NCBI GenBank assembly: GCA_963764925.1
Contig: CAVXUR010000008.1
Span: forward strand, 147,624-211,623
Length of the DNA stretch: 64,000 nucleotides
Reading direction: 5' to 3'
Source of the DNA: an uncultured Acidobacteriota bacterium
Lineage (GTDB): Bacteria; Acidobacteriota; Vicinamibacteria; Vicinamibacterales; 2-12-FULL-66-21
Part shown: positions 18,646-64,000 of the stretch, one piece after another
Numbering within the stretch: position 1 is the first letter of the stretch
Layout of the letters: the number at the start of each line of letters is the position of its first letter
Notes under the pieces: generated by a model
The model's input: the letters and a program-made list of their open reading frames with translations, nothing else
Databases searched by the model: none
What the model was told of the DNA's origin: nothing
Position numbers and translations under genes: made by a program

Positions 18646-18813
18646 CTCACCGCCGAGGGCGCTGAGCCCGCCGAGAAAGACTAGCGAATATCTCATGACT
18701 CGTAGTGTTCACCCTTCGGCGGACCCCTAACAGGTCCGGCTGAAGCCGGACACTACGCCTGAGAGACTGCAAAACTCTCTGCGTTCTCGGCGATCCGCGG
18801 TGAAAGGCTTTTG
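18646..18813. repeat. nested composite palindrome made of two REP-like families
   Basis: The outer arms are ccaaaagcttctcaccgccgagggcgctgagcccgccgagaaag and ctctctgcgttctcggcgatccgcggtgaaaggcttttg. The inner arms are cgtagtgttcacccttcggcggac and gtccggctgaagccggacactacg. It lies between the convergent selA and nuoN genes. Confidence 0.85.
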
Positions 18814-18844
18814 CCGCAGGAGGGCTTCCGGAGGGAGGCGCAGA

Positions 18845-35922: not shown

Positions 35923-35933
35923 TCGCTCGTTCG

Positions 35934-40095: not shown

Positions 40096-42006
40096 ATGCA
40101 TTTTGTGAGAGCGTCGAAATGTGCGGTTTCCGCACTCGGTCTGTTTCTGCTTCTCGCGTCTCCCGCCAACGCGCAGTTTCGCGGCCAGGTCTACGTCTCT
40201 GGCCTGACACGCCCGGTGGCGTTCGTGCAGGATCCGTCGAACGCCAGCGTCCAATTCGTCGTCGAGTTGGGGGGGACGATCCGGGTCATTCAGGGCGGCA
40301 CGCTCCTGTCCGCCCCGTTTCTCGACCTGAGTGGCGCAGTTGGCAGCGGCGGCGAACGCGGGATGCTGTCGCTCGCGTTTCCGCCCGGGGCGGCCGAGTC
40401 GGGCCGTTTCTTCGTCACTTTCGTGAACCCTGCCGGCAATACCGTCGTCGCGCGGTTCTATCGCTCGGCGAATCCGCTCGTCGCTGACGCGTCGACCCGT
40501 TTCGACCTCCAGTGGTCGACCGGCGAGCGATTCATCGCGCACCCCGAGACCCTGCACTACGGCGGCAACCTCGTGTTCGGCGCCGAGGGCTACCTTTACA
40601 TTGGCACGGGCGACGGTGGCGAGCCCGACGACGCCTCACATCAGGCCCAGAGCCTCTCGAAGCTGCACGGCAAGCTCCTGCGGATCAACGTCAATGTCGG
40701 TGATGGCGATCCCGAAGGCCTCGACATTCCGCCGGACAATCCGTTCGCCGGTGGACCCGTGCCTGAAATCTGGTCGATCGGGCTGCGCAACCCCTGGCGG
40801 TTCACCCTCGACGATCCTCTGCGCGGCGGCTCCGGCGCGCTCCTCATCGCCGACGTGGGCGAAAACGCGGTGGAAGAGATCAACTACGAACCGGCCGGTC
40901 GCGGCGGGCGCAACTACGGCTGGCGAAATCGGGAAGGCGCCAACCTGCACAACAACTCGGTGCCGCCGGCCTTCGGCCCCCTCACCGACCCGATCTACGA
41001 GTACGGACATAGCGTCGGACGCTCGGTCACGGGTGGGTACGTCTACCGCGGGTCCGCCATCCCATCGATGATCGGTCGGTACGTGTTTGGCGACTTCATC
41101 CGGGGACAGGTCTGGTCGATCGCCTTGACGCGCGACCCGAACACTGGCGAGGCGACCGCCTCAGACCTCCGCGACCACACGGCGGCGATCAATGCAGGCG
41201 CCGAAGTGCGGCAGATTAGCTCCTTCGGTGTGGACTCGGCGGGAGAGCTCTACGCCGTGAACTTCGGCAGCGGCACCATCGTCGCGCTCAGGGCCGGCGC
41301 GGCCGGACCGGCTCCGGTCGTTCGGATCGAGGGGCCGGGCGCGGGGGCCACAGTTCGTCAGCCGTTCGTGCTCTCGGGATGGTCGCTCGATGCGACCGCG
41401 ACGAACAATGGGATTGCGACCCTGCATGTCTGGGCATTCCCCGCGACTGGTGCAGCCCCGCAGTTCCTGGGTGTCGCCAACTACGGGTCGAACCGTCCCG
41501 ATGTCGCCGCCATCTACGGTTCCCAGTTCGGACCAACCGGCTATCACCTCGACGTCAAAGGTCTGGCCCCAGGCAGCTGGCTGATCGCTGTGTATGGGTG
41601 GGTCTACGCTTCGCAAGGCTTCAGCGTTGTTGCGACGGTGCCGGTGGTCATTCAACCGGCAGGCCTTGTCGCGATCGACATCCCCGGGAACTTCTCGACC
41701 GTCAACACACCGTTCGTAATCAGCGGGTGGGCAATCGATCCCGCGGCACCTTCGGGCACAGGGATCAACACGATCCACATCTGGGCGTTTTCCGCCGACG
41801 GCTCAGCGCCAGTCTTTCTGGGAGTGCCGGCGTTTGGGGATCGACCTGACGTAACGGCAGCCTTCGGATCTCAATTCGCCGGAGCCGGTTACGGACTGGC
41901 CGTGACCAACCTGGCACGGGGCTCGTGGTATCTCGTGGTGTATGCCCAGAGCAGCGTCAGTGGGCAGTTTGACGCGGTCGGCGTTGTGTTTGTGACGATA
42001 CCATAG
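40096..42006 (+). CDS. PQQ-dependent sugar dehydrogenase-like beta-propeller (GSDH/sorbosone dehydrogenase family) fused to two C-terminal GWA...RPDV modules (GSDH-1)
   Basis: The signal peptide is MHFVRASKCAVSALGLFLLLASPANAQ. Propeller motifs are GERGMLSLAFPP, HYGGNLVFGAEGYLYIGTGDGG, GLRNPWRF and NYGWRNREG. Two modules follow, containing ...QPFVLSGWSLDATATNNGIATLHVWAF...SNRPDVAAIYG... and ...TPFVISGWAIDPAAPSGTGINTIHIWAF...GDRPDVTAAFG.... Confidence 0.82.
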   Translation: MHFVRASKCAVSALGLFLLLASPANAQFRGQVYVSGLTRPVAFVQDPSNASVQFVVELGGTIRVIQGGTLLSAPFLDLSGAVGSGGERGMLSLAFPPGAAESGRFFVTFVNPAGNTVVARFYRSANPLVADASTRFDLQWSTGERFIAHPETLHYGGNLVFGAEGYLYIGTGDGGEPDDASHQAQSLSKLHGKLLRINVNVGDGDPEGLDIPPDNPFAGGPVPEIWSIGLRNPWRFTLDDPLRGGSGALLIADVGENAVEEINYEPAGRGGRNYGWRNREGANLHNNSVPPAFGPLTDPIYEYGHSVGRSVTGGYVYRGSAIPSMIGRYVFGDFIRGQVWSIALTRDPNTGEATASDLRDHTAAINAGAEVRQISSFGVDSAGELYAVNFGSGTIVALRAGAAGPAPVVRIEGPGAGATVRQPFVLSGWSLDATATNNGIATLHVWAFPATGAAPQFLGVANYGSNRPDVAAIYGSQFGPTGYHLDVKGLAPGSWLIAVYGWVYASQGFSVVATVPVVIQPAGLVAIDIPGNFSTVNTPFVISGWAIDPAAPSGTGINTIHIWAFSADGSAPVFLGVPAFGDRPDVTAAFGSQFAGAGYGLAVTNLARGSWYLVVYAQSSVSGQFDAVGVVFVTIP

Positions 42007-42023
42007 GCGACTGCCGGACGATC

Positions 42024-45000
42024 CTATCGCACGGTAACGCGCACCATCTTTGGCGGAGCGAAGGCGCCGCTGACCGCGCTCCAGGGAAACACGGCGACAT
42101 CGTAGTTGCCGTGTGGCAACCCCTGGACGACGAACCCGAACCCCGTGTCGCGGAACTGGTCGCCGAGCACCGCCGCGACATCCGGCCGGACGCCGCCGTA
42201 AGCAGGCACGCCAAGAAAGACCGGCGGTCCGCCGGCGAGCGGGTACGCCCACGCGTGGAGCGTATCGATACCAGTCCCCGCGGCCGCATCAAGGTCGGCA
42301 GCCCATCCGACGACGTTGAATGGCTGCGCAACGTCCTGTTGGGCGCGTGGGCTGTCGATCTCCACCTGCGTGCCGACGTAGCCGAACGACTTCGGTCGAA
42401 GGATGACGCGAACGCTCTGCTGGCTCACGGCACGGTCGCCGGACCAGCGGACGAACACCAGATCGTAGGTGCCGACGAAGCCCAGCCCCGGCGACCATGT
42501 GAACGCACCGCTCGTCGAATCGAGCTTCGAGCCGACAGGCAGTGCGGTCAGCATGCTTCCGAAGCGCAAGCTTCCGGTGTAGCGTACGCCTTCAGCGGAG
42601 CCGAGCTGAAGTTCGAAGCGATCGAGCTCCTCACCCCTGACAACGGCCCGTCCCGAAGGGCCAACCGGATACGCACGCCACGGTGCATCGGGATCCCAGC
42701 CACGTCTGCCGACAATCGGCGCCGCATCGAACGCGGCGGTCATGACGGCGTCCGACACCAGGCTCTCTTCGGTGAGGATGACCGGTGCCGTCGTTCCGTT
42801 CGACACTCGGAAGTAGCGGCTGCCAAGGCCCGCAGTGGCGCCGCCGCTGTCGGTGACCGTCCATACGATCGTGTGCAGGCCATTCGAAAGCGTCGTCGTG
42901 TCGATGATGCGGAACCCGAGCGGGTCCGTCGGTATTCGCGAGCCCCGGGAAGTAGCCCGCAATGTCAGATCGATAGTAGTTGTAGGAGGCCGGTCCGACG
43001 GGTGCGCCGTCGACGAACACCGTGATAGTGGAACCGTTGAACGGGATGACTTTCCCTGCCTGCGTCAGCGCCCACGCATAGTTGACGTACGACTGCCCCC
43101 GAGACGGTTTCACCCTGCGCCGGCGTATCGATGGTGCCAAACGGCGTCGACGCAAAGCTGTTGTTACAGGTGATATTCCTCGAGCCCAACGACAGCGAGT
43201 GGCCCTCACGATCGACTGCGTGCGCGGAGATGGTGAAGGGGCCGTTGCCCTGATTCGGCAACATGTTGGTCAGGACCATGAATCCCCAACCGCCACGATA
43301 GTTGCGCGGGAGGGTCGGATACGCCGCCTGGACGTCCGGCCGCGCGTCCTCGATGAACACGGCCTCTCCCAGGAATATCTGCGGCAGACCACCGCATCGT
43401 CCATTCGCCGGAGCGCTCTCTCCCGTCACAGGCGCCCGGCACAAATACAGGTTCGCGACGTCGACGTCGTCAAGAGCCCAGCCCGTCACGGGAATCGCGC
43501 CGGTCACGCCGGTCGTGTTGTTCACCGGAGTATCGATCACGCCGACAGGATTGGCTGAAGTGCCGGTGGGCCTCGTGACCAGCGTCACGTTGATTGGTCC
43601 GACCGTGTTGCCTGCGCCTCCGAGCGAGACGGTTATGGCACCAGTCGACGTCGCCGACATGGCCAGGCCGGTCGGGTTGACCGTGATCGTCAGCTCGCGT
43701 CCGCCGCTACCAGAACCCGGGCTCACCTGGAGCCATGGTTGATTGGACGTCGCCGTCCACGTCACCGCCGGTCCGCTGCTTTGGGTCAGGCGAACGGTCT
43801 GGGCGCTGGTCTGAGCGGTGACGAGCGCACCGCTGAGCGTTTGCGCCATAGCGAAGCGACGTCCGGTCGAGGTTCACGGTCGGGCCGGTCCCGAACTGAT
43901 TGACCGTTAAGGTCCGTCCGGCGATCGTCAGCGTCCCGGAGCGCGCCGACACGCCGTTGGCGTTGACGTTGTATGTGACCGTTGCGCTACCATTTCCGCT
44001 GACCGGCGACGTGATGCCGATAAAGCCGGCATTGCTCGAGGCCACCCACGCGCAGCCTGTCGTCGCGGTCAGGGCAACCGACGCGCTTCCGCCAGCTGGC
44101 AGGTGCACTCGCGCTCACCGGGCGAGATCGAGTAGCTGCACGCGGCGGCTGCCTGGTTCACGGTGAAGGTCTGACCGGCGATGGTGAGCGCTCCCGATCG
44201 TGGCGAGGCAGCGGGGTTGGCAGCGATCGTGTAACCGACGCTTCCCGACCCGGTCCCCGCACTGCCAGAACTGATGCCCAGGAACGCCGCGCCGCTCGAC
44301 GCGTTCCAACTGCAGCCCGCCTGCGTCGACACGGTGACCGTCCCGCTGCCGCTGCCGCCTGCCACGGAGGCGCTGGTCGGGTTGATCGAATAGGTGCAGG
44401 TTGAAGACGACGGGTAGACGAAGTTCAGACCCGCGAGATCGTCAGGCCCGATCGCCGGCGGGAGGGGCGTCGCACCACCGCAGCACGAGGGATACATGAT
44501 GTTCGACGTCGCGTTGGCGATGCTCCCGTCAGTCTGCGTGTGTCCGAGCCCAATCGCGTGGCCAATCTCGTGAATCAGCACGCGCGTGAAGTTGGGCGGC
44601 GTTCTGAAACTCGAACTCAGGTTCGCGGCGTTTTGAAAGATGACATAGCCGCGTGAGAAGGCATAGAACGTCGTGCCGTTGACGGTTCCGCCAGATCCGC
44701 CGGCCCATCCTCCGCCGATCGCCAGGACCGATCCGCTGAGTTCGTCGTTCGGATCTTCGAAGGTGATGACACCACTGGCGCCGGCCAGTCCGCTGAACGG
44801 TCCGTCGGCATCGGACTGAAACGTCGTGCCCCCATACTGAAGAATGATCGACGCACGTCGCCGGGGCAGTCCAGGCCGAGAGCGCGATCTGAAGCTCGGT
44901 GGCAGCATCACTACTCGTGAGCGGCGACGCCGCGCTGGTGTTGATGTACCACATGACCGGCGTGCCCGAGTCGGCCTGCACCCATCGGAACGGGTCGCCC

Positions 45001-45608
45001 CGCCGAGCAAGCGTGAACGGTTGCTCGACCGACTGGAGCTCGTCGCCCGCGCGCGCCGAGCGGCTCGGGCGGGACGGACGGCCCGTGGCGCGCGTCGCGA
45101 GCGCTCGAAACTCCGAAAGGAAGGGCGTGCGGGTGACTAGACCGCCGACAACGTTGGTCTCGCGCAGGTTCCGGCGCAGGCTGCGTTCGCCATTGACCGC
45201 GGGCAGCACGTCGAACTTCGAGAACCCCATCGCGACGGTGCGAAGGCCCTGGGGTCCGCGCTCGAGACACACCAGCACTTCCTCGCCCAGTCGGAATTCG
45301 ACCGCTCCGCCGACGTGCATGTACTCGCCGTCGACTGCGCCGCCGAGCTCCCACACCTCCACGGTGTCGCCGTCGACACCGGTCAGGTCCTCGATGATCT
45401 GGAGCGTCGTGACGGTGTAAATCCTGAGACCCTGCGGACCGCCGCGAGTTGTTCGCTTCGCGACCACGCGTCCGTGGACGACGCGCTCAGAGAGTGCGAC
45501 GAGCTGTGCATCCGTGCGGAAGATGACCGTCGACGCCACGGCAGGCCGGGGCATCCAACAGAAACAGGCCAAAAACAGCCACGCCGACAGCTGACGCGAA
45601 AAGCCCAT
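42024..45608 (-). pseudogene. island protein A: secreted matrixin-like zinc protease with BACON-like Ig domains and three GWA...RPDV modules (about 5 frame disruptions)
   Basis: The fragments are ORFs 44529..45701, 44069..45010, 43707..44108, 42965..43849, 42631..43209 and 42024..42962. The signal peptide is MGFSRQLSAWLFLACFCWMPRPAVAS. The catalytic motif is LIHEIGHAIGLGHTQTDGS...SNIMYPSCC. Switch points are ~44855, ~44105, ~43855, ~43098 and ~42928. Confidence 0.8.
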
Positions 45609-45794
45609 AGAGGGCTTTGACAGAGCAAGCGCGACGCCACATGTTAGTTTCGGCCGGTAAAGCCCTTTCGGGCGCACCCCGGGAGGTTCCGTCATTCGCA
45701 CCGCGACCCGATTCTGGACTCTGGATTACAGAATTGAAATGGCTGTCTCGATCTGCGGAGTCCGGCCACGCCCCCGCAGAGTAAACCACGAATC

Positions 45795-48700
45795 CTAGCG
45801 GATCGTCAGGCGAACGACGGTCGGCGCGACGAAACCGCCAGTGACGTTGCTCCAGGGGAATGCCGCCAGATCGTAGTTGCCGTGCGGGAGCCCCTGCACG
45901 ACCAGGCTGAAGCCGGAAGCGATGAACCGGTCGCCGTGCGACGCGCCGATATCCGGCCGCGCGCCACCGTAGATCGGCGTCCCAAGGAATACCGGCGGTC
46001 CACCGGTCAGAGGATACGCCCAGACGTGAATCGTATCGATGCCGGGCCCCGCGTCCGAGTCCAGATCTGCCGCCCAGCCCGTCACAGCGAACGGCTGCGC
46101 GACGTCCTGCTGTAAACGAGGTGCGTCGATGACGAGGTGAGGTCCCGCGAGCGCCGTACTTTTTGGTTGAAGGACGATCCGTACTTCCCGGCGGCCGGTC
46201 GCCGTCCCGTTGGCCCAGCTCACGAACACGAGATCGTAGGTCCCGACAAACCCGGCGCCCGGAGCCCAGGTGAACTCACCGGTGACTTCGTCGAGACCCG
46301 ACCCGCTCGGCAGGGGCGCGAGTTCTGCGCCCGCGCGCAGATAGCCCGTGTAGCGCTCGGTACCAGATTCGCCCAACGAGAGCTCGACGCGATCGACTTC
46401 CTCGGCGCGGACCACGAACCGCCCCGCGCGATTCGGCTCGTACGACTTCCGCGTACCCTGGAGGTTCCATCCGCGACGTCCTCGGATCGCTGTCGGATCG
46501 AGTGGCACAGCCGCAATCGCCTCAGCCGAAGGACGCGCCTCAATCGATGCTTCGGTTGCGGCAGTTACCGCACTGGCGCCATTCGACACCCTGAAGAATC
46601 GACTGCCGATTCCTTCGGTGACACCTCGATCGTCGACCACGACCCAGGAGATGGTGTGCAGCCCGTTCGACAGTGTCGTCGTGTCGATCGTGCGGAACCC
46701 AATCGCGCCGTTGGTGCCAGCGGTGTTGCGAAAACCTGGAAACAGGGACTCGATATCCGGCCGTTCGTGGTTGTAGTCCACTGTGCCGCGGGTCACGCCG
46801 TCCACGAGGACCGTGATCGTCGATCCGTCGATCGGGATGATCTTTCCCGGGAGCGTGGACCCGAGCGGCGTCAACGCCCATCCGAAGTTCACGTAGTTGG
46901 CGCCCGAGACGACGCCACCCTGTTCGGGCGTATCGATCGTGCCGAACGGCTTGGTCGCGTGCGCGTTGTCGCACGTGAGCGTTCGGGTGCCGAGCAGCGT
47001 GAAACGCGCCTCGCGGTCCTGCGCATACATTGAGAACTGGTACGTCCCGTTGCCCTGATTCGGCAACATGTTGGTGAGGACCATGAAGCCCCAACCGGCA
47101 CGGTTGTTCAGGGGATATCCGGGGTAAGCCACTTGAACGTCTGGGCGTGCGCCGTCGATGAAAATCGCCGATCCCACATAGATCTGTGGGATCCCGGGAC
47201 AGAATTCGTTCGGCGGGGCAGACTCCCCGCTGACGGGGGCGCGGCAGATGTTGACGCGCCTCGCCTCGATGTCGTCGAGCGCCCAACCGGTGAACGGCAC
47301 CGCCCCAGTCACGCCGGTGGTGTTGTCGAGGGGCGTATCCACTGTGCCGATCGGCGCAGCCGACAGGCCAAGCAGACTGAGAGTCAGACGCACTGAGACG
47401 GGGCCCGGAGCGTTCGATGCTCCGTTGAAGGTAAAGATGATCGCGCCGTCTACGACGCCGGCCGAGGGCGCCGTCGCGATTTGGTATCACCGACACTGAC
47501 AGCTCGGCCGGTCCCGTACCTGACGCGGGCGTGACGACCAGCCATGGCCGGGTCGAGGTCGCCGTCCACGTCACCGACCCCATGCCGCTCTGCGTGAGGC
47601 GGACCATTTGCGTGGACGTCCGATAGGTGAAGCTCGCGCCTGAGGTGACTGCGCCAAACCGCAGCGACGTCTTGTCGAGTGTCATGGTCGGGCCGCTGGT
47701 CGGGGCAGCCGGATAGACGACATTGAGGCCGACGAGGTCGTCTGGACCGAGCGCTGGAGGGATCGGCGTGTTTCCGAAGCAACAGGTGTAATACATCAGG
47801 TTCGACGTCGGGTTGGGAACGGCACCATCGGTCTGCGTGTGACCAAACCCGATCGTGTGGCCGATTTCATGCGTCAGGACACGGGTGAAGTCGAGCGACT
47901 GCCTGAACGATGGCGGTAGGTCCGCCGTCTTCTGAAACACCACGAACGCAGAATCAAAACCGTCGTAGACCGTTCCGCCAACTGTCCCCCCAGTGCCGAC
48001 GCTCACTCCACCGCCGCCGAATGCGAGCACGGACATGGGAATGTCCTCGTTCGGATCTTCGAACGTGATCAGCGCGCTTCTGGGAGGAATCGTGCTCCAC
48101 ATGCCCTCGACGTTCGACTCGAGCGCGGTTCCGCCGTACTGAAGGATGATCGAAGCCGACGATGGACTCGTCCAGGCGGCGAGCGCGGTGTTGATTTCAG
48201 CGACCGCATCTCCCGAGAGTAGCGGCGGCTGCGCGCTCGTGTTCTTGAAGTAGACCACCGGCACGCCGAGATCGGCCTCCCGCCAGCGCCATCCCGGCTC
48301 TCCGACAATCTTGGTGAAAGGCTGCGCGACACTCGTAGGCCGCTGGCTCGCTGATTCAACGACGCGGGAAGGCCGCCCGAGCACCTCCGCCGCGAGCCGC
48401 CGGAACTCCGAGAGCGATCGTTCGCGCGCTGGTGGCGCGCCGCCGACAATCATCGTGTCGCGGACGTTTCGGACGAGCGCGGCGTCGCCGCCGACGGTTC
48501 TCGCCACGTCGAACTTCGAAAAACCCATCGCGACGCTGCGCAGTCCTTGACGTCCGCGCTCGAGACAGACCAGCACTTCCTCGCCGATGCGATACTCGAC
48601 GCGACCACCGATGTACAGTGACTCGCCATCGAGCGTGCCTCCGAGCTCCCACACTTCGATGACGCTACCCTCGCGATCGGTGAAATCCTCAAGCACCGAC

Positions 48701-48915
48701 AACGTCGTCACGGTGTAGATTCTTCGGTCTGGTGTGGCCGCGCGGGTTGATCGCTGCGCGATGACCCGCGCATGCACGACGCGCTCGGACAACGCGACCA
48801 GCTCGGCGTCGGTGCGAAAGACGATGGTAGACGCCACAGCGGGATGTGGCATTCCTGCCAAACACGCCAGGAGCACGAGAATTGTCAAACTGCGAAAGCA
48901 TGAGTACGGGGACAC
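45795..48915 (-). CDS. island protein B: secreted matrixin-like zinc protease with three GWA...RPDV modules (one frame disruption ~47461)
   Basis: ORF 46540..49083 joins ORF 45795..47393. The likely GTG start at 48915 gives (M)SPYSCFRSLTILVLLACLAGMPHPAVAS. The catalytic motif is LTHEIGHTIGFGHTQTDGA...SNLMYYTCC. The protein ends ...GLPHGNYDLAAFPWSNVTGGFVAPTVVRLTIR. Confidence 0.82.
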
Positions 48916-49022
48916 CACGCAGGCGGTCACAGCAAAATGAGGGCCACTCAAAGACTGGCGAGAAAACACGCAGTCCCGGCTTGGGATGACGGCCGCGGGA
49001 CGCGCGGCGGGTAATCTCTTAC

Positions 49023-52000: not shown

Positions 52001-52240
52001 GTAGAAACTTGATCCGGCGGGGGCAAAGACCACGATTACAGTGCCCAGACCGCTGATGCCGACGCAATGCACGCCGCCCAGGCCCGCATCGTTGTGCAGG
52101 GTGTCCGCGATCCTGGTGAACGAGTACGGGATCCCTTGAGCGCGCGCGCCGGTCGGCACCACTACGACGAGCGACAAAGCGACCAGTAATTTGGCGCCGA
52201 GCCGCGCGATAGTGCCAGCCCAATTCGATGTGTCACGCAC
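49023..52240 (-). pseudogene. island protein C: NxxGxxAF-repeat region, IPT/TIG domain, BACON-like domain and three GWA...RPDV modules, with 8 or more frame disruptions
   Basis: The fragments are 51923..52240 (signal LLVALSLVVVVPTGARAQG), 51643..51852, 49023..51728, 49904..50188 and 49019..49714. The repeats are INDSDETAY, LSNSGSAVF, MNDSLTVAF, INNSGTVAF, INDSGAIAY and LNNYGQIAF. The IPT-like stretch is PVLTSLSPSSAAVGGAGFTLTVTGSHF. There is no HExxH motif. Confidence 0.72.
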
Positions 52241-52556
52241 GCGACGCCTCCCGAGATGGGCCGACTACTCACGGCGCGACGCAAAGTGGTGGCGCAGGCC
52301 GTGCTGCCACACGCGGCAGTCGCCCGTTAGAACACGTCCGAACCCGATGATGAAACTGGACGACGGAAGGAAAGAGGCGGCAACAATAACACCGACCGCG
52401 TGCGAAAATCGGCCGGTCGATCGAAAGAATAATTTACGGGCCGAGATCGGATCGCGAGGAAAGTCTCCGCATGCTGAACTTCTCGAGGCCAGCGTGCAGC
52501 GAAGTTCACAGCGACGAAGACTTTCTGGCTGATTCAACCCTTCCTGGTGTGAGCCG

Positions 52557-55500: not shown

Positions 55501-55654
55501 CCCGTTCGGACAGAGCGATGAGCTCCGCGTCGGTGCGATAACGAATGGTAGATGCCAGCAGGGGTTGCGCGACGAGCGCGAATGCCAACGCGAGGACGAG
55601 CGTGCAGATCCTGCGTAAGGGCAGATTACTCACCTCACCGCCTTCGGTGCACAT
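52557..55654 (-). pseudogene. island protein D: secreted matrixin-like zinc protease with three GWA...RPDV modules (about 4 frame disruptions)
   Basis: ORFs 54680..55654 and 52557..54683 form the body, with the tail pieces in 52652..53176 and 52534..53403. The signal peptide is MCTEGGEVSNLPLRRICTLVLALAFALVAQPLLAS. The catalytic motif is LAHEIGHAIGLDHTDDS...ANIMNSSCC. Switch points are ~54745, ~52985, ~52915 and ~52795. Its start lies 2 nt after the stop of protein E. Confidence 0.8.
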
Positions 55655-55656
55655 GT

Positions 55657-57852
55657 CTATCTCGGCTCGAGGATCACGCGAAGTGGAATCCGTTCCTCGC
55701 GACCGAGGCAGGATTTGCGGACGAAGGCAAACTGGTACGCTCCCGAAAACTCGATCGGCGGCAGCCAGCGGAACAAACTCTCCTCGCCGTCGAGAGACGC
55801 CCCGGGCGGAAGCGGTCCGGCGACGTCACCGGTCATGAGATACGCGGCGTAAGGTCCGCATCCTTCGGACCACCACCAGGTATCGAGCGCAACCTCCACA
55901 CGCTCGCCGCGTGCCTGACGGATTTCGTGCGTCTCGCCGCCAGCAAATCGAAGCGACCACGAGCCCTCATCCAGCCCATGGCGCTGCCAGAGGAGCGCGG
56001 TCGACTGCGGAATCCTCTGCACCGTCGCGGCGCTGCGCGCCTCGGCCGCCAAAGGCGCTGTGACCTGGCTTGCGGCGCCGTTGTTCACGCGGATGTAGCG
56101 GCTGCCAATCCCCTGGACGACGTTCTGATCGTCGCGCACAACCCAGACAATCGTCCGCATGCCATCGGCAAACTGCGTCGTATCGAGCGTGAACTGCGCC
56201 GCGGGCCCGTTGGCGTTCGGGTAGGTCGGAAACGGAAAGAGCGCCGCGACGTCGGGCCGCGCGAAACCGTAGCCGGCCAGGTTCGAACGTTCCGCGCCGT
56301 CGATGAAAAGACGAATCGTCGAGCCATCGAATGGAATCGATCGACCCGGCTGGGCGAGCACCCAGCCCTGGTTGTTCAGCATGCCGGACACGGTCGCGCC
56401 CTGACCCGGGACGTCAATCGTGCCGAATGGATAGGGCGAGCCGGTGTTGTCGAACGTAACCGTGGTCTGTCCAAGCCGTTGGCGGCCACCCTCGATATCT
56501 TCCGCGTAGGCCGACAGAACAAACGTTCCATTGCCCCCGTTTGGCAGCACGTTGGACAAGACCATCAGTCCCCACCCCGCACTTGTCACGCCAGGGTTGA
56601 ACGCCACGCCAAGGATGTCCGGTCGGGCGCCACGTACCCGGGTGCCTTCCCCGAGTAACACTTCTCCCTGCGGTTCTCCGGCCACCGAGTTGCGATAGAT
56701 CAGCACTCTGGCAATCCCGACATCGTCGATCGCCCAGCCACTCACTGCCACGGCTCCGCTCAATGCCGTCGCGCCTGGACGCGGGATGTCCAGAACGCCG
56801 AGCGGCGCAGTCGTCGTCGACGTGGCGTCGGTGATGCGCAGCTGGACGCGGATCGACATCGGCGTGCTGGGCGCCGCGGACGATGTGATGTTGATCGTGC
56901 CTTCGTATGTCCCCCTGGACAGGACGCCGGCACCAGCGGGGTCGATCGATATCGTCGCCGTTGACGGACTGGTCCCGGCGGCCGGGGACAGCATCAGCCA
57001 TGGCTCGGACGCGCTGGCCGTCCACGTGGCCGCAGGGTTTTCGGTGTTGGTGATGCGGATCGGTTCGGGCGGCGACATGTGGGCAGCTCCCGAACCTGGG
57101 CGATGGATGGCGAACAAATGGCCGTTGAAAGGCGCGTCGGTCGCAACGGGAGACCCGTTCTGGGTGATTGCGACTCCTGGAGCAAAGGAGAAGGTCACGA
57201 AACTCGAAACGTAGATGTTCCGCCCCACTGGCTGCTGCGTCGTATTCGGAACAACGGAGAAGGTCACCGTCGCCGGGAAGGTGCTGCCACTTCCTCCCGA
57301 GGTGACGGTCACGCCGTCGGTCGGAAGCACGTTATAGGAGCAAGGCGAGCCGGTCGTCGAGACTGTAAAGCTCCCCGTGCCGCCGTTGGCAGGGATGAGG
57401 GCTGGAGAGACGGCAGAGAGCGTCAGCGGGCACGGGTTCGGAGCCTGCGACACCGCCAAGGGTTGACCACCGAACCTGAGTATGAAATTTCGAGGTGCGC
57501 TCGCATTGTTCTCGAAAAAAGTCAGCGAAACCGTTACTGGACCTGTGCCGCTCAACGGCGACGGAAGGCCGATCCAAGGCGGAACTTGAGGAATCGGCGC
57601 CATGTTGGAGAAGAAGATCCCCTCAAACGTCCACTGGCAATTGCTCGACGAGGTAAGCACGTTGATCGTGACTGGATTACCGGGAGGTGCACCCGCGGCC
57701 GGAATACTCAGTGTCGCCGGGCTGAACCCTGTGACGCAGCCCGGTTGCGCGATCGCGACGTCACTCGTGAGCGACACCAGCCAGAACGCAGCGACGCCGG
57801 TGAGCGGTATGGCCCGAAGCACTGCGCGCATAACGAGGCTCCTTGACACCAT
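55657..57852 (-). CDS. island protein E: secreted BACON-like/Ig protein with two GWA...RPDV modules (intact)
   Basis: This is ORF 55657..58002 trimmed to MVSRSLVMRAVLRAIPLTGVAAFWLVSLTSDVAIAQ (ATG 57852). It contains ...ALSGAVAVSGWAIDDVGIARVLIY...GARPDILG...AGWGLMVLSNVLPNGGNGTF...PFGTIDVPGQGATVSG...ARPDVAALFP.... Confidence 0.82.
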   Translation of the reverse strand: MVSRSLVMRAVLRAIPLTGVAAFWLVSLTSDVAIAQPGCVTGFSPATLSIPAAGAPPGNPVTINVLTSSSNCQWTFEGIFFSNMAPIPQVPPWIGLPSPLSGTGPVTVSLTFFENNASAPRNFILRFGGQPLAVSQAPNPCPLTLSAVSPALIPANGGTGSFTVSTTGSPCSYNVLPTDGVTVTSGGSGSTFPATVTFSVVPNTTQQPVGRNIYVSSFVTFSFAPGVAITQNGSPVATDAPFNGHLFAIHRPGSGAAHMSPPEPIRITNTENPAATWTASASEPWLMLSPAAGTSPSTATISIDPAGAGVLSRGTYEGTINITSSAAPSTPMSIRVQLRITDATSTTTAPLGVLDIPRPGATALSGAVAVSGWAIDDVGIARVLIYRNSVAGEPQGEVLLGEGTRVRGARPDILGVAFNPGVTSAGWGLMVLSNVLPNGGNGTFVLSAYAEDIEGGRQRLGQTTVTFDNTGSPYPFGTIDVPGQGATVSGMLNNQGWVLAQPGRSIPFDGSTIRLFIDGAERSNLAGYGFARPDVAALFPFPTYPNANGPAAQFTLDTTQFADGMRTIVWVVRDDQNVVQGIGSRYIRVNNGAASQVTAPLAAEARSAATVQRIPQSTALLWQRHGLDEGSWSLRFAGGETHEIRQARGERVEVALDTWWWSEGCGPYAAYLMTGDVAGPLPPGASLDGEESLFRWLPPIEFSGAYQFAFVRKSCLGREERIPLRVILEPR

Positions 57853-57890
57853 CAACGCCCGGCGAACGGGCAGGGCCAAACCGACGGCAA

Positions 57891-60068
57891 TTACTTCGAT
57901 CCTATAACGAGGCGCAGTGGAATTCGTTCTTCCCGGCCGCTGCAGGCCTGCCTGACGAACACAAATTCGTAAGTACCTGAAAACTCCAGCGGCGGCAGCC
58001 ATCGGAAGAGGCCGTGCTCGGCGTCGAGAGACGCCCCGGCTGGCAGTGGGGCCGCGACGTCACCAGTCATCAGATAACCGCCGTACGGTCCACAGCCCTC
58101 GGACCACCACGCCGTATCGAGCGCGACCTCCACCCTCTCGCCGCGCGCCGTCCGGATCTCATGCACCACGCCCTCTGCAAACCGAAGCGACCACGGTCCC
58201 TCGTCGAGGCCCAGACGCTCCCAAACGAGCGCTCGCGCTGGTCGGATCGCCCTGACGTCAGCGGCGCTCCGCGCTTCGAGCGTGACCGATTGAAGGCCCT
58301 GGCTGGCGCTGCCGTTCTGGATGTCGATGTATCGGCTGCCGATGCCCTGGAGAACTCCCAGATCATCGCGGACGGCCCACACGATCGTGTGCAGACCGTC
58401 GGTCCACTGCGCGGTGTCGAAGGTGAACTGCGCCGCAGGCCCGTTCGCGTTCGCATATGTCGGCAGCGGAAAGAGCGCCAAGACATCCGGCCTCGCGAAT
58501 CCGTACGCGGCCGCGTTCGGTTGTTCGACGCCGTCGATGAACAGTCGAATCGTCGAACCGTTGAACGGGATGGAGCGCCCGGGCTGCGCAAGAACCCAGC
58601 CCTGGTTGTTGTAGGTCCCGGCTACCGTAGCGCCTTGACCCGGCAGGTCGATCGTCCCGAACGGAAACGGCGATCCTGTGTTGTCGAAGGTCACGGTCTT
58701 TCGGCCGAGCAGCGAACGACGGCCCTCGACGTCGTCGGCATAGGCCGACAAGGTGAAGGTACCGTTCCCGCCGTTCGGCAGCATGTTGGAGAGGACCATC
58801 AGGCCCCAACCCGCCGACGTTGCGCCTGGTGTGAAGCCGAAGAACTGCGACGCTACGACGTCGGGTCTGGCGCCGCGCACACGCGTGCCGTCCCCGAGAT
58901 AGATTTCGCCGGCGGGCTCGCCCGCCACGGCGTTGCGATAAATCTGCACGCGGGAAATCCCGACGTCGTCGACTGCCCACCCGCTGACTGGCACCGCACC
59001 GCTGAGACCGGTCGCTCCGTTCACCGGAATGTCGACCACTCCGAACGGCGGAGTCGTCACCGACGTCTCGTCGGTCACGTTCAGCGACAGGCGCAGTGTG
59101 AGCGGACTGCTCGGAGCCACCGGGGAGCTGAGGCTGATGGTTGCGGCATAGGTGCCCCGTGCCAGGCCAGCCACAACGGACGGATTCACCGAGATCACAG
59201 CCGTCGAGGGGCTCGTTCCAGTAGCAGGCGTGACGTCCAGCCATGGGTCCGAGGCCGTTGCGGTCCAGGTCGCGGTGGGATTCTCCGCATTCGTGATCCG
59301 TATCGGCTCGGGTGATGAGACGAACGCCGGCCCTGTGGCGGGCCGATGCACCGCAAGCAGGGAACCCAGCCTAGGCGCATCGGTCGCGACTGGAGGACCG
59401 TTCTGCAGAATGCTGACGCCGGGAAACATGACGGGCGTCGGCGAGGGAGAAACCGTGACCGCACGAGTCAGCGGGCCACCACTGGTGTTTGGCGCGACGG
59501 AGAATCCAACGGCGGCTGGAAACGTGCTGCCGGTAGCGCCCGTTGTGATGGTCACGCCATCGCCCGGGAACGCGTAGTACGAACAGCCGGAGCCAGCGGT
59601 GTTCACGGTGAAAGTGCCGGTGCCTCCGTTGGCCGGAATGCGCGCTGGCGAGGGGCCTGAGAACGTGAACTGACAGAGATTCACCGGCTGCGTCAGCGTG
59701 ATCGTCTGGCCTCCGTAGATGAACGTCACATCGCGAGGCGCGGTTCCGGTGTTTGGTGTCACGAACCCGATTGACACCGTTCCCGATCCCGTCCCGGAAA
59801 GTGGCTGAGGGTAGGACATCCAGGGTGGGGGCAGTGGAAACGGGCCGTTCGGTGTTGCGACGCCTTCAAAATTCCACGTGCACGTGTCCGATGACGTGAG
59901 GACAGTGAACGTGAGGGGAGTCGCGGTACCCGCCGGCGGCATGATGATGGAGGTCGGATTGAAGCCAGTTACGCAACCTTGACGCCCGTACGCGACATCG
60001 CTGGTGAGCCACACGACGCTCAGCGCCATCATCGCAGCGATCGCCGCCCTCCGAACTGCCGTCCACAT
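57891..60068 (-). CDS. island protein F: tandem paralogue of E (intact)
   Basis: This is ORF 57891..60149 trimmed to MWTAVRRAAIAAMMALSVVWLTSDVAYG (ATG 60068). It is colinear with E throughout, for example GLSGAVPVSGWAVDDVGISRVQIY, AGWGLMVLSNMLPNGGNGTF and PFGTIDLPGQGATVAG. Confidence 0.82.
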   Translation of the reverse strand: MWTAVRRAAIAAMMALSVVWLTSDVAYGRQGCVTGFNPTSIIMPPAGTATPLTFTVLTSSDTCTWNFEGVATPNGPFPLPPPWMSYPQPLSGTGSGTVSIGFVTPNTGTAPRDVTFIYGGQTITLTQPVNLCQFTFSGPSPARIPANGGTGTFTVNTAGSGCSYYAFPGDGVTITTGATGSTFPAAVGFSVAPNTSGGPLTRAVTVSPSPTPVMFPGVSILQNGPPVATDAPRLGSLLAVHRPATGPAFVSSPEPIRITNAENPTATWTATASDPWLDVTPATGTSPSTAVISVNPSVVAGLARGTYAATISLSSPVAPSSPLTLRLSLNVTDETSVTTPPFGVVDIPVNGATGLSGAVPVSGWAVDDVGISRVQIYRNAVAGEPAGEIYLGDGTRVRGARPDVVASQFFGFTPGATSAGWGLMVLSNMLPNGGNGTFTLSAYADDVEGRRSLLGRKTVTFDNTGSPFPFGTIDLPGQGATVAGTYNNQGWVLAQPGRSIPFNGSTIRLFIDGVEQPNAAAYGFARPDVLALFPLPTYANANGPAAQFTFDTAQWTDGLHTIVWAVRDDLGVLQGIGSRYIDIQNGSASQGLQSVTLEARSAADVRAIRPARALVWERLGLDEGPWSLRFAEGVVHEIRTARGERVEVALDTAWWSEGCGPYGGYLMTGDVAAPLPAGASLDAEHGLFRWLPPLEFSGTYEFVFVRQACSGREERIPLRLVIGSK

Positions 60069-60270
60069 TGCTAACGTCCTCCCTGCGTCGAGACTCGACC
60101 GGACAGACCCGCCGGTATCCTTAACGGCTATACCGTAGTTTCGGCACATTCGTACGTGACTCGCTCGGTCAGGAAGTCACGAGAAGCGGCACCCAACTTG
60201 CACGGAGCCGCTCGACCGAGCACACACGGCAGGCTAATACTTCTAATACTTAAGGTTGGAGCTCAGGAGA

Positions 60271-62211
60271 ATGTCAAATCTGCCAGGCCGTTGGCTAACC
60301 GCAGCGTTCTCTATGGCGGTCATGCTGACCGCGTCACCGACGCACGCGCAACTCACGTCGACGATTTACGTGTCTGGTCTTTCCAATCCGGTCGCGTTCG
60401 TCCAGGATCCGTCGAACGCCGCCGTTCAGTACGTCGTGCAGCAGCGCGGCCTGATCCGGGTCGTGCAGAACGGCACCCTCCTGCCGACGGCCTTCTTGAA
60501 CCTCACCAGCTCACTCGCCCAGGCCAGCGAACAGGGGCTGCTCGGCCTGGCGTTTCCACCCAATTACGGATCGAGTGGACGCTTCTACGTCTGCTTCACG
60601 AACACCGCTGGACATATTGTCGTCGCGAGATTCAACCGATCGAATAGCAACCCGCTCGTTGCCAACACTGCCTCCAGGCTCGACTTCCAATGGCCGAACG
60701 GTGATCGATTCATCTTTCATCCCTTCTCGAATCACAACGGCGGCAACCTCGCGTTCGGACCCGATGGCCTCCTCTACGTCGGTATGGGAGACGGCGGCGA
60801 CAGCAACGATCCCGGTCATCTGGCGCAGACGCCGGGCAGCCTTCTTGGCAAGATGCTGCGACTCGACGTCTCGGTCCCGGACGGCGACCCCAGGGGCTAC
60901 GCCGTGCCGCCATCGAACCCATTCGTCGGGCAGCCGGGCTACCTCGGAGAAATCTGGAGCTTCGGTCTGCGCAACCCCTGGCGCTGGAGTTTTGACGACC
61001 CCGCGCTCGGCGGGAACGGCGCGATGCTCATCGGGGACGTCGGGCAGAGCGCGCGCGAGGAAATCGATTACGAGCCGGCCGGGCGCGGTGGGCGGAACTA
61101 TGGGTGGCGGAACCGTGAAGGCACGCTGCCCAATATCATCGACCCGGCACCGGCGTTTGGACCGCTGATAGATCCCATCTTCGAGTACGGTCGCGGCGAC
61201 GGCACGGTCGTCACCGGCGGGATCGTCTATCGCGGAAGCGCGCTTGGCGCCGCCTACCGCGGGCGCTACTTCTTCGCAGATTTCGGTTCACGCCGCATCT
61301 GGTCGCTGGCGTTGACTATCAATCCCGCGACCGGTGAGGCAACGGCCGCAGGACTCGTCGAGCACACCGCGGAGTTGGGTGGGACCGCGGCCCTGGGAAA
61401 TATCTCGTCGTTCGGCGTCGATCGGTCGGGGGAACTGTATCTCTGCAGCTTCAACGGCGTCATTCACCGCATCGGCCCTGGCGCCCGCGGGCCCAGCCCG
61501 CTGATGAACATCGATCTCCCCGCCCAGGGTGCAGTCGTGGCGCAGCCCTTCGTGCTTGCGGGATGGGCCTTCGACGCCAGCGCACCTAGCGGCACCGGCA
61601 TCAGCACGATCCACGTCTGGGCGTTTCAAAGTCAACCGTGGGACTACTACCTGGCAGTGCCAGCGTTCGTCGGCGTACCAAACTTCGGCAGCCGTCCTGA
61701 TGTCGGCGCGGCATTCGGCACACAATTCACGCCATCGGGTTTCGGGCTAGTCGTTTCAGGCCTGCCGCCAGGCGCCTATCAGCTCGCGTTGTTCGGGTGG
61801 GTCGATGCGATCGGTGGGTTCGGCATCGTTCGGACCGTCGACGTCACGATTGTCTCGAGCACGCAGCTCGCAATCGACCTTCCGCCGAATTTCTCGACGG
61901 TCAATCAGCCGTTCCACGTTGCGGGATGGTCGATCGACACCGCCGCGGCCAGCGGAACAGGCATCGATACGATTCATGTCTGGGCCCATCCAACGACTGG
62001 TGGACCTCCAGTATTCGTCGGTGTACCCGCGCTCGGTGGGATTCGGCCTGATGTCGCCGCAGTCTTCGGAAACGCGCGCTACGGGCCGAGCGGTTACAAC
62101 ATGGCAGCCTCGGGCCTGGCGCCTGGAACCTATGACCTGGTCGTCTACACACACAGCACCGTGACCAACGACTTCTCCGCGGCACAGTCCGTTCGCGTGA
62201 CGGTCCGGTGA
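60271..62211 (+). CDS. PQQ-dependent sugar dehydrogenase-like beta-propeller fused to two C-terminal GWA...RPDV modules (GSDH-2, paralogue of 40096..42006)
   Basis: ATG 60271 is preceded by AGGAGA. The signal peptide is MSNLPGRWLTAAFSMAVMLTASPTHAQ. Propeller motifs are NHNGGNLAFGPDGLLYVGMGDGG, GLRNPWRW and NYGWRNREG. Two C-terminal modules follow, and the protein ends SVRVTVR. Confidence 0.82.
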   Translation: MSNLPGRWLTAAFSMAVMLTASPTHAQLTSTIYVSGLSNPVAFVQDPSNAAVQYVVQQRGLIRVVQNGTLLPTAFLNLTSSLAQASEQGLLGLAFPPNYGSSGRFYVCFTNTAGHIVVARFNRSNSNPLVANTASRLDFQWPNGDRFIFHPFSNHNGGNLAFGPDGLLYVGMGDGGDSNDPGHLAQTPGSLLGKMLRLDVSVPDGDPRGYAVPPSNPFVGQPGYLGEIWSFGLRNPWRWSFDDPALGGNGAMLIGDVGQSAREEIDYEPAGRGGRNYGWRNREGTLPNIIDPAPAFGPLIDPIFEYGRGDGTVVTGGIVYRGSALGAAYRGRYFFADFGSRRIWSLALTINPATGEATAAGLVEHTAELGGTAALGNISSFGVDRSGELYLCSFNGVIHRIGPGARGPSPLMNIDLPAQGAVVAQPFVLAGWAFDASAPSGTGISTIHVWAFQSQPWDYYLAVPAFVGVPNFGSRPDVGAAFGTQFTPSGFGLVVSGLPPGAYQLALFGWVDAIGGFGIVRTVDVTIVSSTQLAIDLPPNFSTVNQPFHVAGWSIDTAAASGTGIDTIHVWAHPTTGGPPVFVGVPALGGIRPDVAAVFGNARYGPSGYNMAASGLAPGTYDLVVYTHSTVTNDFSAAQSVRVTVR

Positions 62212-62213
62212 GC

Positions 62214-64000
62214 CTATCGACTCCGGATCGTGACGATCACAGGAAGGCGCTCCTCCTGCCCGCTGCAATCGGTGCGGACAAAGAGCAACGGAAAGCGCCC
62301 GGCGAAGCCGGGTCCGGGCTGCCAGTAGAACGTGCCTGAGGGATCGAGCGACGCGCCCACGGGGAGGTCGCTCAGTACCTCATCTCTGACCAGGTATCCG
62401 GCCCAGGTGCCGCCGCACCTCTTGGATGGTGTCTCGAGCGCGAGCTCGAGCCGCTCGAGCGGTGCCATCGTCACCGCGCGCGGCAGGTCGCGGGCGGCGC
62501 GGAGCACCCGCCGCGCACCGATGTCCCGCTGCACCGTGACGTCGTCCTCGCTCACGGGAACCGTGTCGAGACTTGCCGCGCGCCGCTGGCTGTGCGGCGC
62601 AGCCGCCACCCCTACGGGCGTCGCCGCGGGCTCCGCCGCCACTGCCACGTCGCTGGACGCGTGCTCGTTCGATATATTCCCGTGTCCCGGCGGCTGGGCG
62701 TCGGCGGAATTGGCCACAGAGAAGTAACGGCTCCCGATTCCCGACGTGGCGAGACGCGTGTCGGTCACGGTCCAGGAGATTGTGTGCAACCCTTCGGCGA
62801 GCCCCGTCGTGTCGATGGCCCGATAGCCGACCGGCCCATTCGTATTCGCCAAACCAGGAAACGCACCAGACACGTCGGGCCTGAACAGGTTGTAAGTAGG
62901 ATTGCCTATGGGTGCACCGTCGACAACGACCTGGATGGTCGAGCCATCAGTGGGAATCATCGCCGGCTGGGGCGTGAACGCCCAGCCCCAGTTCAGATAG
63001 TTCGGCCCGGCGATCGTCTCGCCCTGCGCCGGCGCATCAATCGTCCCGAACGGCTGCGTGGCTGTCGCGTTGAGCCCGAACAGCGTCCGCGACCCCAGCA
63101 ACGTCTGGCGTCCCTCGACATCCTCCGCGACGACATGAATCCGGAATCCGCCCGTCCCTTGGTTCGGGAGCATGTTCGTCAGAATCATGAACCCAAACCC
63201 GGCTCGGTGATTGAGTGGTGTCGTCGGATACGCCTGCTGAACGTCAGGGCGCGCCCCCGGCACGAACACCGCGGTACCCAGAAAGACGACCCCGGCCGGC
63301 TCGGTGCCCTGCGCATCGCGGTAGATCTGCACGCGCGCGACCTCCAGATCGTCGAGCGCCCACCCCCCCACCGCGATCGCGCCGCTGACCTGCGCGCCAT
63401 TCAACGGCAGGTCCAAGGCACCAAACGGTGGCACAGACCCTAGGCCCGCTTGACGTACCGTGAATACGCGGCGGCCGATCGTGAGAGTTGCCGTCCGAGA
63501 CGCGAATCCGGAATTCGTATTCACGAGCAGCGCGATCTGGCCGGGCGTGTTCGACTGGACGTTGACAAACGAGGTGTCGCCCGTGACCGCCTGTGAGCCG
63601 CAGGCATCGGCGATCGAGACGACGACGGTGCCACCTGAAGCGGGGACGGTCGCGCTCGACGGCGAGAGCGTGAACGCGCACTCCTGGACGTCCAGGGTAT
63701 ACGTCCGCGAGGTGGCGCACGCGTTGGCGTCTCTGGCAGCGACCGTGAAGAGATGTCGGCCTGACACATCCAGTGTCCCGGAGAGCACGCCGCTCGCAGC
63801 GTCTAGCGTCAGCCCCGACGGCAAGACGCCGGTAGTCACCTGGAACGCAAACGGCCCCGAACCACCACTCGTCGACAGCACCTGCCGATAGGAACGCCCG
63901 GTAACGCCTGTTGCGAGCAGCGCCGGTGACATCGTCATGGCCGTGCACGACGCCAGCGTGAAGTTGACACCGGCTGTGATCGCGCCATTTGTAATGGCGA
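62214..64000 (-). CDS. island protein G: putative-Ig (LPSGLTLDxxSGxLSGT) and BACON-like domains with two GWA...RPDV modules; the 5' end runs off the window
   Basis: The frame of ORF 62214..63938 stays open upstream of the listed Met to position 64000 (...AITNGAITAGVNFTLASCTA-MTMSP...). It contains GAIAVGGWALDDLEVARVQIY, GARPDVQQAYP, AGFGFMILTNMLPNQGTGGF and PFGTIDAPAQGETIAG. Its stop lies 2 nt from the GSDH-2 stop. Confidence 0.8.
   Translation of the reverse strand, partial: AITNGAITAGVNFTLASCTAMTMSPALLATGVTGRSYRQVLSTSGGSGPFAFQVTTGVLPSGLTLDAASGVLSGTLDVSGRHLFTVAARDANACATSRTYTLDVQECAFTLSPSSATVPASGGTVVVSIADACGSQAVTGDTSFVNVQSNTPGQIALLVNTNSGFASRTATLTIGRRVFTVRQAGLGSVPPFGALDLPLNGAQVSGAIAVGGWALDDLEVARVQIYRDAQGTEPAGVVFLGTAVFVPGARPDVQQAYPTTPLNHRAGFGFMILTNMLPNQGTGGFRIHVVAEDVEGRQTLLGSRTLFGLNATATQPFGTIDAPAQGETIAGPNYLNWGWAFTPQPAMIPTDGSTIQVVVDGAPIGNPTYNLFRPDVSGAFPGLANTNGPVGYRAIDTTGLAEGLHTISWTVTDTRLATSGIGSRYFSVANSADAQPPGHGNISNEHASSDVAVAAEPAATPVGVAAAPHSQRRAASLDTVPVSEDDVTVQRDIGARRVLRAARDLPRAVTMAPLERLELALETPSKRCGGTWAGYLVRDEVLSDLPVGASLDPSGTFYWQPGPGFAGRFPLLFVRTDCSGQEERLPVIVTIRSR

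Follow-up and report, generated by a model that had tools for sequence, protein, structure and literature searches.

Organization of the island

Nine adjacent large genes fill positions 40096-64000 of the window (the whole 64,000-nucleotide stretch analysed here, part of contig CAVXUR010000008.1 of an uncultured Acidobacteriota bacterium) almost completely, with intergenic gaps of at most 320 bp. Their number, order and orientation, GSDH-1 (+), A to F (all -), GSDH-2 (+) and G (-), bear out a preliminary description of this DNA, coordinates included. Judged from their sequences, the products are predicted to be Sec-exported, all-beta multidomain proteins in which differing N-terminal heads precede copies of a repeated module, here in three subtypes that we call M1, M2 and T, and of a further shared domain that we call H, which is weakly He_PIG-like and occurs seven times. 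The genes and their modules are as follows.

GSDH-1, 40096-42006 (+): signal peptide, pyrroloquinoline quinone (PQQ)-type glucose/sorbosone dehydrogenase (GSDH) propeller, two T modules at the exact C-terminus (41311-41655 and 41659-42000, by tblastn)
Gene A, 42024-45608 (-): signal peptide, unknown N-domain, metzincin, BACON-like domains, M1 (43160-43549), M2 (42795-43153), H (42390-42716), T (42027-42374)
Gene B, 45795 to about 48920 (-): architecture the same as in A, M1 (46965-47357), M2 (46578-46958), H (46161-46490), T (45798-46145)
Gene C, 49023-52240 (-): signal peptide (52240-52150), NxxGxxAF 'choice-of-anchor' repeats, CoaZ/TIG domain, BACON-like domain, M1 (50159-50552), M2 (49794-50152), H (49388-49714), T (49026-49372)
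Gene D, 52557-55654 (-): metzincin type, like A and B, M1 (53706-54098), M2 (53334-53699), H (52935-53255), T (52563-52911)
Gene E, 55657 to about 57831 (-): intact, signal peptide, three Cys-containing BACON-like immunoglobulin (Ig) domains, M1 (56446-56808), M2 (56077-56439), H (55660-55995), without T
Gene F, 57891-60068 (-): intact, 725 aa, paralogue of E, M1 (58680-59051), M2 (58311-58673), H (57894-58229)
GSDH-2, 60256-62211 (+): signal peptide, GSDH propeller, two C-terminal T modules (61495-61851 and 61867-62208, by tblastn)
Gene G, 62214 to beyond 64000 (-): 5' end outside the window, He_PIG Ig domain, BACON-like domain, M1 (63081-63431), M2 (62709-63062), H (62217-62504)

One module in three subtypes

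The estimate of about 22 module copies made in the preliminary description is matched by tblastn with module queries, which returns exactly 7 M1, 7 M2 and 8 T at E values between 1e-18 and 1e-90. Copies are about 115-130 aa long and mean column identity within each subtype is 65-67%. Between M1 and M2 the similarity detected by BLAST is marginal (E about 3e-4), but profile-profile comparison with hhalign joins all three subtypes: M1 with M2 at 95.6% probability (E 1.1e-8), M1 with T at 95.5% (E 1.4e-8) and M2 with T at 85% (E 6e-6). Aligned jointly, 21 copies retain an invariant proline in D-x-P, the tryptophan of G-W-A, the arginine and aspartate of R-P-D, and one glycine. The M1, M2 and T blocks are thus variants of one pattern, and the homology first proposed by eye is upheld. 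H, seventh of the shared blocks, served as a negative control and scored 0.4% probability against the module profile; it is therefore rejected as a 23rd to 29th copy, and the similarity among M1, M2 and T is not one generic to beta-sandwiches.

Domain order is fixed in the island. M1 and M2 always form an ordered pair followed by H, while T appears solely as the last domain, single or in tandem, and closes all six of the proteins that carry it (GSDH-1, GSDH-2, A, B, C and D); E, F and G have none.

The M1 copies of A-D (e.g. 46965-47357) contain a 9-residue insertion with a cysteine, together with a cysteine in the preceding 'I-C-R' strand. Those of E, F and G are without both insertion and cysteine and read 'I-Y-R' in place of 'I-C-R'. 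Co-variation of the two residues suggests a loop closed by a disulfide, which would fit an extracytoplasmic location.

Predicted fold

An AlphaFold2 model of F, built from an 83-sequence alignment, is an all-beta chain with a mean predicted local distance difference test score (pLDDT) of 91.7 and a predicted template-modelling (TM) score of 0.79, and a model of T from gene B (122 sequences) reaches a pLDDT of 97.9 with 9 strands and one short helix. In the T model strand A closes with D-x-P and strand B with G-W-A, H-V-W-A-Y-P makes up strand C, R-P-D caps the sole helix and strand F consists of the aromatic Y-D-L-x-x-F-P-W-S; in the model of F the order of elements is the same for M1 and M2. 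These models agree with the beta-sandwich-like arrangement of D-x-P, G-W-A, R-P-D and an aromatic strand that had been guessed earlier. A Foldseek search of the PDB with T found generic Ig/E-set sandwiches alone (E about 1e-4, TM 0.55-0.60), among them CopC, antibody V domains, the sulfite-oxidase E-set domain and a domain of the Deinococcus HPI S-layer, and no close solved structure. Whole F drew generic multi-Ig proteins (hydin-like, cadherin, complement C3) that are uninformative at the level of single domains. As modelled, the module is an Ig-like (E-set) sandwich of 7-8 strands whose short helix begins at R-P-D.

A divergent branch of the Big_7 superfamily

No Pfam family scores above threshold for the window's module copies and no NCBIfam model matches them at E values up to 0.01, so that in these scans no curated model names the module. 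The nearest is Big_7 (PF17957), which weakly matches 6 of 21 copies at E below 1 (best E 4e-5) through profile positions 1-35; the first copy scores 19.9 bits and whole-protein scans give 17-18.6 bits, against a gathering score of 24.1 bits. An exhaustive search of protein clusters at 50% identity with a profile of 17 module copies retrieved 10,649 clusters at E <= 1e-3, including 2,460 at E <= 1e-30, with up to 12 copies per protein. Among 47 proteins spread over the top 150 profile matches, 17 carry a strong Big_7 match (best E 2.1e-72) and 30 have no Pfam Big_7 match at E <= 1e-5. P0244 has eight module matches and eight Big_7 stretches, P0250 six and six, and in the three proteins checked (P0241, P0244, P0250) the best Big_7 stretch falls inside a module match. 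Five others (P0301, P0304, P0322, P0340, P0361) each end in three modules that are invisible to Pfam.

Because the same residues are common to both profiles in these intermediates, the module is a divergent, under-annotated branch of Big_7. The two share an Ig-like sandwich, an 'I-D-x-P ... G ... V-x-G' start and a 'G-x-Y/H-x-I/L ... D-x-x-G' F-G hairpin. They differ in length, the Big_7 model having 70 positions against about 115-130 aa, and in the module's inserted C'-helix segment with the invariant R-P-D and its G-W-A strand end. The module is accordingly a branch of the Big_7 superfamily lengthened by a C'-helix insertion, neither a new fold nor an invention of this lineage. Big_7 itself is without an assigned function.

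Conservation and distribution of the cassette

Comparison with a closely related locus, L001, gives ratios of nonsynonymous to synonymous substitution (dN/dS) of 0.14 for both F and GSDH-2 and of 0.17 for E. E is 98.3% identical to its L001 counterpart at the nucleotide level with no indel, and F is 98% identical to the database protein P0001. Within M1, changes relative to L001 number 15 synonymous and 0 nonsynonymous over three genes, which are small counts. Across 83 M1-M2 homologues at 32-81% identity, dozens of columns are invariant or nearly so. Genes E, F and GSDH-2 are under purifying selection.

F has at least 485 homologues, nearly all metagenomic, with heads that include M10, S8, FG-GAP/VCBS, Kelch, FN3, TIG and TIGR03803 repeats. 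Two peptide patterns specific to the cassette, run against a single genome for each GTDB species, yielded 493 confirmed stretches. Among the 66 best loci, 61 carry an Acidobacteriota label (Vicinamibacterales, Aminicenantes, Paludibaculum), and a metagenome-assembled genome (MAG) often holds several of them. These 66 loci together with L001 make up a set of 67 loci of 20 kb, in which M1-M2 is followed by H in 58 and T is present in 42, with up to six cassette genes within 20 kb. The lineage-specific expansion proposed in the preliminary description therefore holds for the M1-M2-H cassette, which is concentrated in Acidobacteriota and there often forms islands of several genes; it does not hold for the module itself, given the many clusters retrieved by its profile. 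In the wider superfamily the module stands at the very C-terminus in 37 of the 47 sampled proteins, and further heads comprise Amidase_3, Glucosaminidase, RHS, Sortilin/BNR, Vgb_lyase-like propellers and S8 peptidases. A word-indexed search with the T profile returned mostly fragments of 100-206 aa, uninformative on architecture.

Five of the 67 loci (L046, L052, L057, L061 and L064, at about 10.6-13.4 kb in each) have an M1-M2 gene without H. In these and in L058 a DUF1800/DUF1501 gene pair (Pfam E 2.6e-105 and 6e-34) lies directly downstream of the M1-M2 gene.

Heads and N-termini

The heads are mutually unrelated in Pfam and NCBIfam, and the metzincin, GSDH propeller, NxxGxxAF plus TIG and BACON-like types named in the preliminary description were all recovered. 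GSDH-1 and GSDH-2 match Pfam GSDH (PF07995) at E 5.3e-29 (102 bits) and E 2.1e-26 (93.4 bits) against a cut-off of 25; both fall far below the cut-off of TIGR03606, so that their assignment is one of family-level membership only. The metzincin heads of A, B and D show zinc motifs HEIGHAIGLGH, HEIGHTIGFGH and HEIGHAIGLDH, followed downstream by Met-turn motifs NIMYP, NLMYY and NIMNS respectively; A scores 26.5 bits against Peptidase_M10 (PF00413; cut-off 24 bits), and B and D 21-22 bits. Gene C matches TIGR05002 (NxxGxxAF repeat) at 60.6 bits with a cut-off of 50 and NF058597 (CoaZ repeat) at 118.3 bits with a cut-off of 30, and also TIG. Matches to BACON_2 and paired cysteines occur among the heads as well. 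Eight signal-peptide-like N-termini can be seen by eye, as described earlier, that of C in a different frame.

A, B and D have in common an N-terminal region of about 250-300 aa between signal peptide and metzincin (44854-45608, 47480-48897 and 54737-55618, all -), with the motifs FRTDAEL.ALSERVVH.RV and SVAMGFSKFDV. It has no Pfam match (A and D scanned separately, B by a whole-ORF scan; ORF, open reading frame) and may be a propeptide or inhibitor domain.

Frameshifts in genes A-D

GSDH-1, GSDH-2, E, F and the visible part of G are intact ORFs. At least 14 frame changes interrupt genes A-D (A 5, B 1 near 47477, C at least 4, D 4), so that the preliminary description placed them correctly and missed that they are not intact here. 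The frame paths, obtained by mapping the intact 1197-aa homologue P0092 onto the window, are -3, -1, -3, -1, -2, -3 for A; -2, -3 for B; -1, -3, -1, -2, -3 for D; and -3, -1, -3 for the 3' part of C, with more local shifts in its M1 and M2. The 5' end of C is shifted too, its signal peptide lying in a separate 105-aa ORF (51923-52240) in a frame that differs from that of the main ORF.

Most likely these frameshifts are for the most part consensus errors of a long-read metagenome assembly and not gene decay. Genes upstream of the island are frame-split in the same way: purH (13912-15505), with its MGS and AICARFT domains in different frames; nuoN (18753-20279), with Proton_antipo_M profile positions 1-39 and 60-293 in different frames; and a TPR gene (6903-8337) divided between two. 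We compared the island with four syntenic loci (L001, L002, L003, L006) from three related assemblies at 90-95% nucleotide identity, and different genes proved to be broken in different sister assemblies. Intact copies of A, B and D occur in L003, L002 and L006 respectively, the cassette region of C aligns in one single frame in L001, and E, intact in the window, is broken in L006. Indels between assemblies are 64-90% single-base across four comparisons; relative to intact sister orthologues the window usually has one extra base, gene A carrying 7 extra single bases relative to L003. Single-base insertions lie at 42919, 43090, 43840, 44097, 44118, 44857, 47477, 52789, 52910, 52969 and 54741-54745. 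The GenBank sister MAGs L002, L003 and L006 bear MFD names, and MAGs of the MFD project are Nanopore-only Flye assemblies with one round of Medaka polishing (PMC12313526), an origin that argues for the same cause.

This conclusion must be tempered by the clustering of the frame changes, all of which fall in the 13.6 kb of A-D, against 0 in the approximately 10 kb of E, F, G and both GSDH genes, so that uniform random error is no explanation. C and D are also more diverged from L001, at 91-96% nucleotide identity in most 500-bp bins and 77-79% at 50000-51000, with 45 indels; for E, F, G and GSDH-2, which show no indels, identity to L001 is mostly 97-99%. Strain heterogeneity in a hypervariable stretch would explain both the clustering and the divergence. 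A reading of A-D as genuine pseudogenes, the portion of the paralogue family that is in decay, would account for the same two observations, but we consider it quite unlikely: each of A, B and D has an intact copy in some sister MAG and the broken set differs by MAG, single-base events predominate among the indels, the housekeeping genes purH and nuoN are frameshifted too, and the translated fragments are still 50-60% identical to intact homologues with all motifs retained. Two other causes were rejected. Phase variation at simple sequence repeats does not fit the inspected indel sites, which lie outside homopolymers and repeats, and collapse of repeats during assembly does not fit paralogues that are merely 70-84% identical in nucleotide sequence.

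The 3' halves of C and D, spanning M1-M2-H-T (49033-50501 and 52570-54047), are 83.6% identical, above the 70-76% of other paralogue pairs, which suggests recent duplication or gene conversion.

Chromosomal setting

The island is a resident chromosomal paralogue cluster of a Vicinamibacterales-like Acidobacteriota bacterium. The 40 kb upstream hold dnaB, prs, a GHMP kinase gene, a PMT-type glycosyltransferase (GT) gene, purH, selA, a nuo operon and thiG, and directly upstream of the island are polysaccharide genes (GT1, GT2, GT4 and a methyltransferase-Wzy_C fusion). Transfer of the island as a mobile element was rejected. G+C content is flat across the window at 63-67%, the left flank is syntenic in sister genomes, the sole credible tRNA of the window (tRNA-Gln, 4922-4996) is 35 kb away, and no integrase or transposase was seen. 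As the preliminary description had it, no regulator, transporter or mobility gene lies within the island, and a tblastn search of 72,556 plasmids with M1-M2-H-T gave zero matches.

On the right the island extends beyond the window. In L001, a 95%-identical relative, the orthologue of G has a full length of 1343 aa with CarboxypepD_reg-like and He_PIG domains. There (L001 1-7854) G comes after a 943-aa protein of similar kind, which has M1-M2-H as well, and past this stands a third gene with CarboxypepD_reg-like domains, cut by the end of the locus.

Three further features of the left part of the window deserve record. The methyltransferase-Wzy_C fusion (35337-37826, +) is an 829-aa protein joining a class I methyltransferase domain to a Wzy_C/O-antigen-ligase-like membrane domain, with GT1, GT2 and GT4 on its flanks, and a similar Wzy_C-like protein adjoins cassette genes in 8 related loci. 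A 92-nucleotide tRNA-Arg(CCG) called by ARAGORN at 13467-13558 (-) lies inside the PMT-type glycosyltransferase ORF, is without Rfam support at the gathering threshold and is probably a false positive. An ORF at 29472-30629 (-) joins a partial Complex1_30kDa (NuoC) match with a SIS_2 domain, which points either to an unusual gene fusion heading the nuo operon or to a further artefact of frame.

Proposed function of the C-terminal cassette

We tentatively favour, at somewhat less than an even chance, a reading of M1-M2-H(-T) in which this tail is a C-terminal stalk and attachment module for exported heads. The heads (metzincin, PQQ sugar dehydrogenase, NxxGxxAF/CoaZ repeats, and BACON-like or CarboxypepD_reg-like Ig arrays) would perform chemistry or primary recognition, and the tail, a rigid stalk plus an attachment module, would hold them at the cell envelope or extracellular matrix through a common, probably glycan, ligand. 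The evidence for this proposal is positional and circumstantial: the C-terminal bias, the fixed domain order and the high conservation, the 'choice-of-anchor' head of C, and the existence of E and F as cassette proteins that have no enzyme head. 'Choice-of-anchor' families take their name from the alternative C-terminal anchors of other lineages. The unrelated heads in front of M1-M2-H and the polysaccharide genes directly upstream also count in its favour. More ambitiously, M1-M2-H(-T) might be an unrecognised acidobacterial system of surface attachment or sorting, playing the part that PEP-CTERM or the C-terminal domain of type IX secretion plays elsewhere and attaching dozens of unlike exported heads in each genome to the cell envelope or EPS, by way of a specific conserved ligand site formed by the GWGFMVLTNMLPxxGNG, RPD and GIGSRYF surfaces; we regard this as improbable.

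Several points weigh against an attachment role. Neither for this branch nor for Big_7 at large is there any known ligand or experiment. E and F carry no catalytic head, so that the cassette itself may be the functional part and not a tether. In secreted enzymes, Ig-like domains at the C-terminus often serve just to aid folding or secretion and are later removed. Apart from paralogues, no conserved neighbour turned up in the 67 loci, neither a sortase-like gene nor one for secretion, and no other family occurs in more than 14; the GT4-like cluster that reaches 14 of 67 is at no more than chance expectation, and the second largest neighbour cluster, judged from one example ORF, looks like antisense shadow ORFs of the cassette genes.

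The modules could instead be passive accessory domains, ligand-free spacers or folding and secretion aids like PPC or PKD, perhaps cleaved on maturation. Such a role would suit a generic Ig-like fold with weak PDB neighbours, a C-terminal position and a superfamily found behind many unrelated enzymes (S8 peptidases, Amidase_3, Glucosaminidase). We nevertheless hold it to be unlikely, because conservation is unusually high for a spacer, both among the 83 M1-M2 homologues and in the lack of nonsynonymous change in M1, because the order M1-M2-H is fixed and E and F consist solely of Ig-like domains plus the cassette, and because no sequence match to PPC was found. Another candidate role is targeting in the manner of a carbohydrate-binding module (CBM), directed at an external polymer of plant, fungal or microbial cell walls and not at the producer's own surface. 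BACON-like domains, historically proposed as glycan binders, accompany the cassette in this soil bacterium, its heads include a protease and a sugar dehydrogenase, and peptidoglycan hydrolase heads occur elsewhere in the superfamily. Against these stand the lack of CBM similarity in Pfam at E up to 1, best Foldseek matches that are not CBMs, and an island without genes for carbohydrate-active enzymes, which leave substrate targeting distinctly unlikely. By analogy with the C-terminal domain (CTD) of the type IX secretion system (T9SS) or with PEP-CTERM/exosortase, T or the whole cassette might also be an acidobacterial sorting signal served by dedicated machinery. T is C-terminal in every island protein that has it, as the module is in most of the sampled superfamily, T is an Ig-like sandwich of about T9SS-CTD size, and 'choice-of-anchor' heads are present. 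Yet neither Por_Secre_tail nor any other known sorting domain is matched, modules also lie internally and in arrays of up to 12, and E, F and G are without T; it is the absence of a linked machinery or partner gene in the 67 loci that weakens this explanation most, and we judge it very improbable.

Acidobacteriota rank with the most abundant bacteria of soils, and the ways in which they display or keep hold of their extracellular enzymes are poorly understood. The present analysis delimits a large domain family, mostly overlooked by current annotation and without an NCBIfam model, and a conserved three-domain cassette behind many enzyme heads, with high-confidence structural models to seed a new domain model. 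Should the stalk and attachment reading be true, it would explain the positioning of a whole class of acidobacterial exoproteins; should the cassette be merely a spacer, the finding is an improvement in annotation.

Comparison with known systems

Beyond Big_7, the module has a likeness at sequence level to the BIg adhesin domains of Salmonella SiiE (PDB 2yn3/2yn5), which its C-terminal half matches in a PDB sequence search at E 6e-7; PDB sequence searches with the T and M1-M2 profiles found nothing significant. By Foldseek, the repeats of repeats-in-toxin (RTX) adhesins (6xi1) resemble the multi-Ig rod architecture of F. Such giant adhesins are substrates of type I secretion systems with tens of identical repeats, whereas the window's proteins are smaller, have N-terminal signal peptides and contain no such repeats.

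T is like the T9SS CTD (Por_Secre_tail) and PPC in being an Ig-like sandwich of about 100 aa at the extreme C-terminus behind diverse secreted heads. It is unlike them in that modules of the window's type also occur internally and in tandem, and no match to PF18962 (Pfam, E up to 1) or TIGR04183 (NCBIfam, E up to 0.01) was obtained; T9SS is not known from Acidobacteriota. The 'choice-of-anchor' proteins (TIGR05002, NF058597) resemble gene C in their heads, that of C matching both models above cut-off. The head of gene C is followed by BACON, M1, M2, H and T, and not by a known anchor (PEP-CTERM, LPXTG or a T9SS CTD, for example).

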